DNA of 64,000 bases from NCBI RefSeq assembly GCF_056712565.1, contig NZ_CM160072.1. The stretch is one strand, 5' to 3'. Each line of letters starts with the position of its first letter. The stretch's first letter is position 1. The position numbers were made by a program, and so were the translations under genes. A model generated the notes under the pieces. That model made no database searches and had not been told where the DNA came from. It saw nothing but the letters and a program-made list of their open reading frames with translations. This document shows, piece by piece, positions 52,035 through 52,052 of the stretch.

Positions 52035-52052
52035 TGTATCTTCTTTTATACA
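52035..52052 (+). promoter_or_regulatory. candidate late-promoter activator site (TGT-N12-ACA) upstream of gpV
   Basis: TGTatcttcttttatACA; spacing to the V start codon is shorter than expected, so assignment is tentative. Confidence 0.35.

Follow-up and report, generated by a model that had tools for sequence, protein, structure and literature searches.

Conserved geometry of the activator site at a predicted leaderless V promoter beside an OLD-like cargo gene in a P2-like prophage

Between the genes S and V of a P2-like prophage lies a cargo gene, and between the cargo gene and V lies a perfect 18-bp dyad. The question raised by this arrangement is whether arrival of the cargo disturbed the promoter from which V and the genes behind it are transcribed. 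An earlier note on the same DNA took the dyad for a late promoter element of gpV standing beside a cargo island, considered it possibly displaced and too close to the start codon for normal spacing, and proposed that the V promoter may have been remodelled by the insertion, or that V may be reached by read-through from the cargo gene. Here we compare the locus with the annotated promoter of P2, with cargo-free relatives and with a survey of related loci. "The window" is the whole stretch of DNA analyzed, 64,000 nucleotides; the features described below are on its plus strand except where stated.

The region is a P2-like prophage with the gene order Q, P, O, N, M, L, X, holin, lysozyme, lysB/C, R, S, cargo, V, W, J, I, H. 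The closest sequenced phages, Escherichia phage 500465-1 (genus Wadgaonvirus) and Klebsiella phage 4LV2017 (Elveevirus), both belong to the Peduoviridae. Gene V (52100..52678; Pfam, PGAP) encodes a baseplate spike/assembly protein of 192 amino acids with matches to the Pfam families Phage_base_V and GpV Apex. It heads the late morphogenetic operon V-W-J-I-H-G, as annotated by PGAP in the prophage of E. coli SF-468, with which the window is collinear over V, W, J and I. The ATG at 52100 is also the PGAP start of V in SF-468, which is 100% identical to the window over positions 49800-52700. An in-frame TTG upstream, at 52034, was considered as the start of a longer V and rejected because homology to all relatives begins at the ATG; the V proteins of P2 and 186, which likewise begin MNT, also disfavor it.

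The dyad, TGTATCTTCTTTTATACA, occupies 52035..52052, as read directly from the sequence, and is a perfect match to TGT-N12-ACA, the consensus site of the Ogr family of late activators. The four late promoters of P2 carry this motif and depend on Ogr (PMC3931495). The P2 promoters PP/PO and PF, the B-dependent promoters of 186 and the delta-dependent promoters of P4 all have TGT-N12-ACA about 55 bp upstream of the transcription start, lack a -35 element and are served by a small zinc-finger activator (PMC3931495). Measured from the A of the V ATG, the window dyad has its center (52043.5) 56.5 nt upstream and its first base at -65. The bare motif occurs 13 times in the 64-kb window, compared with 15.2 ± 3.7 times in shuffled sequences, and is thus not enriched. 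Because the raw count is uninformative, the evidence that the dyad is a predicted activator-binding site of the V late promoter (PV) has to come from its position.

The normal spacing of such a site was read from the P2 record, AF063097, which is the comparison that the earlier note had proposed. In the record, the feature "activator binding site; activation of pV promoter" spans 10239..10266, and the annotated transcription start of the V operon, 10308, is where the V coding sequence (10308..10943) also begins. It follows from this annotation that the P2 V mRNA is leaderless, with the activator site centered 55.5 nt upstream of V. In PMC4633059, P2 (citing Christie and Calendar 1985) is named among the few known E. 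coli leaderless genes, while our literature searches found no direct mention of P2 gene V in particular as leaderless. The cargo-free relatives 500465-1 and 4LV2017 have the same arrangement: their dyad, TGTATCAGCACTGATACA, lies 4 nt past the stop codon of S and is centered 55.5 nt before the V ATG, one base from the 56.5 nt of the window. The short distance between dyad and ATG is therefore the usual design of the family, since the V transcript would start at the ATG, and the idea that the element stands too close to the start codon has to be abandoned: the window geometry resembles that of P2 and is not displaced.

The likeness to these promoters lies in layout more than in sequence. Like PV of P2, the window element is directly upstream of V and beside a non-essential cargo locus between S and V (orf30 in P2), and for both the activator is of the Ogr family, its site centered about 55.5 nt ahead of a transcription start, annotated in P2 and predicted here, at the V ATG. 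Beyond the half-sites the two promoters share no detectable sequence similarity. The P2 site is imperfect, with TGT-N11-ACA lying within ATGTTGTCTGGTAGTTCTACAAATGAAT, whereas the window site matches the consensus perfectly, and orf30 is on the strand opposite to V whereas the cargo gene of the window is on the same strand. The comparison with 500465-1 and 4LV2017 is closer, for their V gene DNA is 94-95% identical to that of the window, the TGTATC...ATACA half-sites are shared and the distance from dyad to ATG agrees within 1 nt. However, their S-V gap is 68 nt long without cargo, and their spacer and -10 are unrelated to those of the window (CAACCT versus AAAAAT).

To describe variation in front of V, we assembled 82 sequences including the window (viral contigs and the loci collected earlier), all with V proteins 95-100% identical and 100 nt readable upstream. 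The 100 nt preceding the ATG sort into 16 families whose mutual ungapped identity is at most 45%. An exact TGT-N12-ACA begins between -63 and -66 in all 16, most often at -64. The background rate of the motif in the families' own upstream DNA is 2.5e-4 per position, which gives a joint probability of about 1e-48. When the families are aligned on the dyad, the consensus extends to tTGTRYC...AYACAa, and the window dyad agrees with it at each informative position. The view that the dyad is a chance palindrome in AT-rich cargo DNA is compatible with the 13 occurrences of the motif in the window against 15.2 expected. It is effectively refuted by the comparative data, that is, by the retention of the position in 16 of 16 unrelated families and by the fit of the window copy to the extended family consensus, and we regard its probability as negligible.

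Outside the dyad, the strongest columns of the alignment are an A at -11 and a T at -7, each found in 14 of the 16 families. A -10 hexamer has its two invariant positions there, in a register suited to transcription that starts at the A of the ATG. Around half of the families seem to have a TG extension, with T at -15 in 8 of 16 and G at -14 in 7 of 16. Purine-rich conservation of the Shine-Dalgarno kind was sought at -14 to -5 across the 16 families and was not found. The start codon of V is ATG in 85 of 85 matched sequences, which agrees with the requirement for a 5'-terminal AUG in leaderless translation, reported as absolute in PMC4633059.

The window promoter has each of these features. 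Its predicted extended -10, TGgAAAAAT (52085..52093), combines the TG at -15/-14 with the hexamer AAAAAT at -12..-7 (52088..52093), which supplies the A at -11 and the T at -7. The best candidate for a -35, TTGAAG at 52064..52069, agrees with consensus at four of six positions with 18-bp spacing, and a scan of the region for sigma-70 consensus promoters did not call it. The V promoter is thus a -10-like hexamer with a poor or absent -35. We place the predicted transcription start at 52100, the A of the V start codon, because the annotated P2 start coincides with the beginning of the V coding sequence, the -10 register is kept, there is no Shine-Dalgarno sequence and the start codon is always ATG. 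We infer from these features that the V-W-J-I-H-G mRNA would be leaderless. The known leaderless mRNAs of lambda cI (from PRM) and Tn1721 tetR are likewise translated from a 5'-terminal AUG without a Shine-Dalgarno sequence, and PMC4633059 names P2 together with them.

Gene V would differ in kind from these examples. Both cI and tetR are repressor genes expressed at low levels, and V heads a late structural operon.

More distant V lineages show related patterns. In the 186-type lineage (31 upstream families) the hexamer at -12..-7 is CATCCT, with A at -11 in 26 families and T at -7 in 29. The P2-type lineage (8 families) is less clear, with T at -7 in six and A at -11 in four. The left half-site, TGT, begins at -64 or -65 in the two lineages alike, and the right half-site is often imperfect. 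When the sequences upstream of V in 148 P2-type and 186-type loci were compared by blastn with those of window-type loci, no cassette shared near the ATG between lineages was found; the only homology was weak (about 70%) and lay inside the S gene.

A comparator for the leader is available inside the window. The F late promoter, the other one that the window retains, has a TGT-N12-ACA dyad, TGTGTGAATAACGGTACA, at 58047..58064 and a -10, CAACAT, at 58099..58104. Its predicted start, 58111, is 64 nt from the first base of the dyad, and a predicted 30-nt leader containing AGGAGG precedes the FI ATG at 58141. The dyad-to-start geometry of PF and PV is equal, but only V of the two would be without a leader. 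The leaders of P and O in P2 are 23 and 40 nt long, respectively, compared with the predicted 30 nt for FI and none for V.

A candidate for the activator is encoded in the SF-468 prophage, where the ogr gene was read, its position being beyond the right end of the window. The predicted product, encoded downstream of D, has 72 amino acids, a match to the Pfam family Ogr_Delta (5e-22) and a CX2CX22CX4C zinc motif.

The extent of the cargo cassette was mapped from the limits of homology. Homology to other cassette types ends at 49702-49738, at the 3' end of S, and resumes at 52092-52100 (at 52108 in two loci). Since it resumes only at the V start codon, the entire promoter region belongs to the variable cassette, which spans about 49727..52099 and contains an alternative 3' end of S, an OLD-like gene, hairpins, the heptamer array and the whole V promoter. 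The last ~30 codons of S (49727..49820) vary accordingly, ending in GFTKDISNLNLGVYLKR here and in GVNDDVEAMTRDMILQWLAG in the cargo-free relatives. The proposal that cargo insertion remodelled the V promoter holds in one sense, as the sequence has been exchanged up to -1 together with the cassette, but not in the sense that mattered, as the geometry has been kept. The identification of a late promoter element for gpV at the cargo island, on the other hand, is upheld by the family position, the P2 annotation and the edge of the cassette.

The cargo gene (49966..51924) encodes a 652-aa ATPase with an OLD-like TOPRIM domain (Pfam AAA_15, 2.3e-17; OLD-like_TOPRIM, 1.8e-06), and its best PADLOC matches are AriA and Old. 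Directly after its stop codon is a GC-rich, terminator-like hairpin with a 9-bp stem, a GAAA loop and a weak T tail (51931..51952); the 120-nt region folded gave -26.2 kcal/mol (z = -3.0). A second terminator-like site at 51998..52025, found by terminator scan and RNA folding, has a CCTCT/AGAGG stem with the T-rich tail GTTTATTTCTTTTC behind it. Upstream of the dyad is the CTAACCT heptamer array (51959..52006; Tandem Repeats Finder counts 6.9 copies), so that the dyad is indeed located between the array and the V start at the coordinates first reported.

The array varies in length between strains. There are six full copies in the window and in the viral contig L006, nine in isolate AF6 and five in MS15052; other strains differ in length mostly by multiples of 7, and one by 6. 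The hairpin flanking the array and the segment from dyad to ATG are unchanged in the strains read (SF-468, AF6, MS15052 and L006), and, judged from these sequences, the array is without effect on the dyad-to-start spacing. The region that is 6 nt rather than 7 nt longer than the window is that of NZ_CP087287.1 (APEC 16-1068), in which the OLD-like gene is annotated as two AAA-ATPase coding sequences, suggesting a frameshifted, decaying copy.

Could the cassette nevertheless have impaired PV, or could V be transcribed by another route? If the insertion had displaced or damaged the promoter, leaving its spacing abnormal and its function impaired or rewired, one might expect a promoter sequence wholly unlike that of the cargo-free relatives, as is observed, and the dyad is indeed 1 nt farther from the ATG than at the commonest spacing (-65 rather than -64). 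The value of -65, however, is inside the family range of -63 to -66 and common to three other families, the annotated P2 start is likewise at the V ATG, and SF-468, L006, AF6 and MS15052 have the same sequence from dyad to ATG despite the varying number of heptamers. We consider damage of this kind very improbable. Alternatively, most V transcription might come from read-through, either of the OLD-like gene or of the late transcript that runs from O to S upstream, and the dyad might have no role. The cargo gene and V are on the same strand, terminator scan and RNA folding detected no terminator between S and the cargo gene, the T tail of the first hairpin is weak, and in the cargo-free relatives nothing stands between S and the dyad, so that some read-through is plausible. 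Against this as the main route, two hairpins, one with a T-rich tail, intervene between the cargo stop codon and the dyad, and all 16 cassette types retain the dyad and its -10 register; in at least 10 of these the cargo runs opposite to V, which makes read-through from it impossible. A message produced by read-through would also lack a Shine-Dalgarno sequence in front of V. Transcription of V from the OLD-like gene, as the earlier note had suggested, is thus not needed to explain the locus. Read-through may add a little V transcription and is unlikely as the main route.

The symmetry of the dyad raises a further possibility, namely that Ogr bound there would activate leftward transcription, either in addition to that of V or in its place, giving an antisense RNA of the OLD-like gene that starts near 51989. 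The minus strand of the heptamer array offers a GAGGTT at 51996..52001, 52-57 nt from the edge of the dyad, with a start 63 nt away, and a single dyad serves the divergent promoters PP and PO in P2 and in SF-468, where the -10 of PP is TAGGTT. Yet the other 15 families show no conservation at the mirrored -10 positions, the spacing lies at the limit of the range observed, and the array, which occurs only in this cassette, would be followed by hairpins that meet the transcript at once. Bidirectionality as a general property of the PV dyad was rejected when mirrored -10 sequences sought in the 16 families proved not to be conserved. It survives as a special case of this cassette, one to which we attach a very low probability.

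Minus-strand cargo brings a different kind of overlap. In at least ten of the surveyed cassettes the cargo is on the minus strand with its start codon 5-40 nt left of the PV dyad, and the start codon of P2 orf30 is placed near the PV dyad in the same way. With a cargo start codon so close to the dyad, the cargo promoter would overlap the PV spacer, and such promoters must, from their predicted positions, read through the activator site.

Whether PV is used in the window strain depends on the state of its prophage. Compared with SF-468, the window lacks 231 bp (at 44548/44549) and 554 bp (at about 45046-45049), corresponding to 2960..3190 and 3692..4245 of the SF-468 locus (L001). In the best-matching complete E. 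coli genomes listed, the alignment over the same 1,891-bp span is in three pieces, and none of them shares either deletion. The 231-bp deletion removes the 5' 121 nt of the terminase gene P, the PP/PO dyad TGTGTGGTTGTCGGTACA and the PO -10, and it ends at the predicted +1 of PO. The 554-bp deletion creates an in-frame fusion of the N-terminal part of gpO with gpN (ORF 44581..45930, 449 aa). To judge from these lesions, the prophage is probably head-defective, and its late programme may no longer work as it should. In that case PV would be of consequence only when an activator is supplied, be it Ogr, the activator of a superinfecting P2-like phage or that of a P4-like satellite.

Two observations concern neighboring parts of the prophage. 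In the segment of SF-468 that is deleted from the window (L001 3080..3144), 64 nt separate the PGAP start of P from the far edge of the PP/PO dyad, and TAGGTT occupies -12..-7. By this spacing P may be leaderless too in the SF-468 lineage, in contrast to its 23-nt leader in P2. The tail-fibre segment of the window (55569..57364 and 57426..57998) is inverted relative to SF-468, with 99.9% identity in reverse orientation, and adjoins a 190-aa ORF matching the SF-468 "recombinase family protein" coding sequence. The inversion and the adjoining recombinase ORF together point to an invertible host-range segment caught in its other orientation.

We assign a probability of roughly 0.88 to the reading that the dyad is the Ogr-family activator site of PV, in normal geometry, and that the leaderless V-W-J-I-H-G transcript starts at 52100. 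The observations behind this estimate are the motif, its geometry and conservation, the activator gene in SF-468 and the P2 annotation. Late in the lytic cycle, an Ogr-family zinc-finger activator would bind TGT-N12-ACA about 55-56 bp upstream of the start and recruit sigma-70 RNA polymerase to PV, where the polymerase would find a weak, TG-extended -10 (TGgAAAAAT) and no usable -35. Late activation in P2 proceeds through contact with the alpha subunit of RNA polymerase. Transcription would begin at the A of the V ATG (52100), and the leaderless mRNA of this baseplate and tail-fibre operon would be translated from its 5'-terminal AUG.

PV in this prophage is an ordinary instance of a long-known promoter type. 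Hotspots for accessory genes in P2-like phages are also known already (PMC9122126; bioRxiv 10.64898/2026.02.27.708500), and in the defence-hotspot papers we found no discussion of PV. As read from the sequence comparison, the cargo cassette swaps the promoter sequence up to -1 and keeps its architecture, and nothing is displaced. A broader proposition, which we put forward tentatively and think somewhat unlikely as a whole, is that the boundary of the S-V hotspot coincides, to the nucleotide, with the +1/ATG of a leaderless operon, so that at least 16 unrelated cassettes each bring a complete PV (dyad at -64 ± 2, A at -11, T at -7), V being a fixed docking edge and the promoter a replaceable part, to which leftward firing via GAGGTT might be added.

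The result is mainly a correction: what looked like an anomaly is the usual design of V, predicted to be leaderless, in the P2 family, and there is no cargo-driven promoter remodelling at this locus. What is mildly new is the coincidence of the hotspot boundary with the predicted +1/ATG and the apparent delivery of a separate PV with each cassette type. If the leftward transcript exists, the dyad together with the GAGGTT of the array would fire against the OLD-like gene late in infection. For annotators, the geometry is a rule that can be used to place V starts and hotspot boundaries in P2-like prophages, and the cassettes would amount to a natural set of activator-dependent leaderless promoters that are diverse in sequence and constant in geometry.
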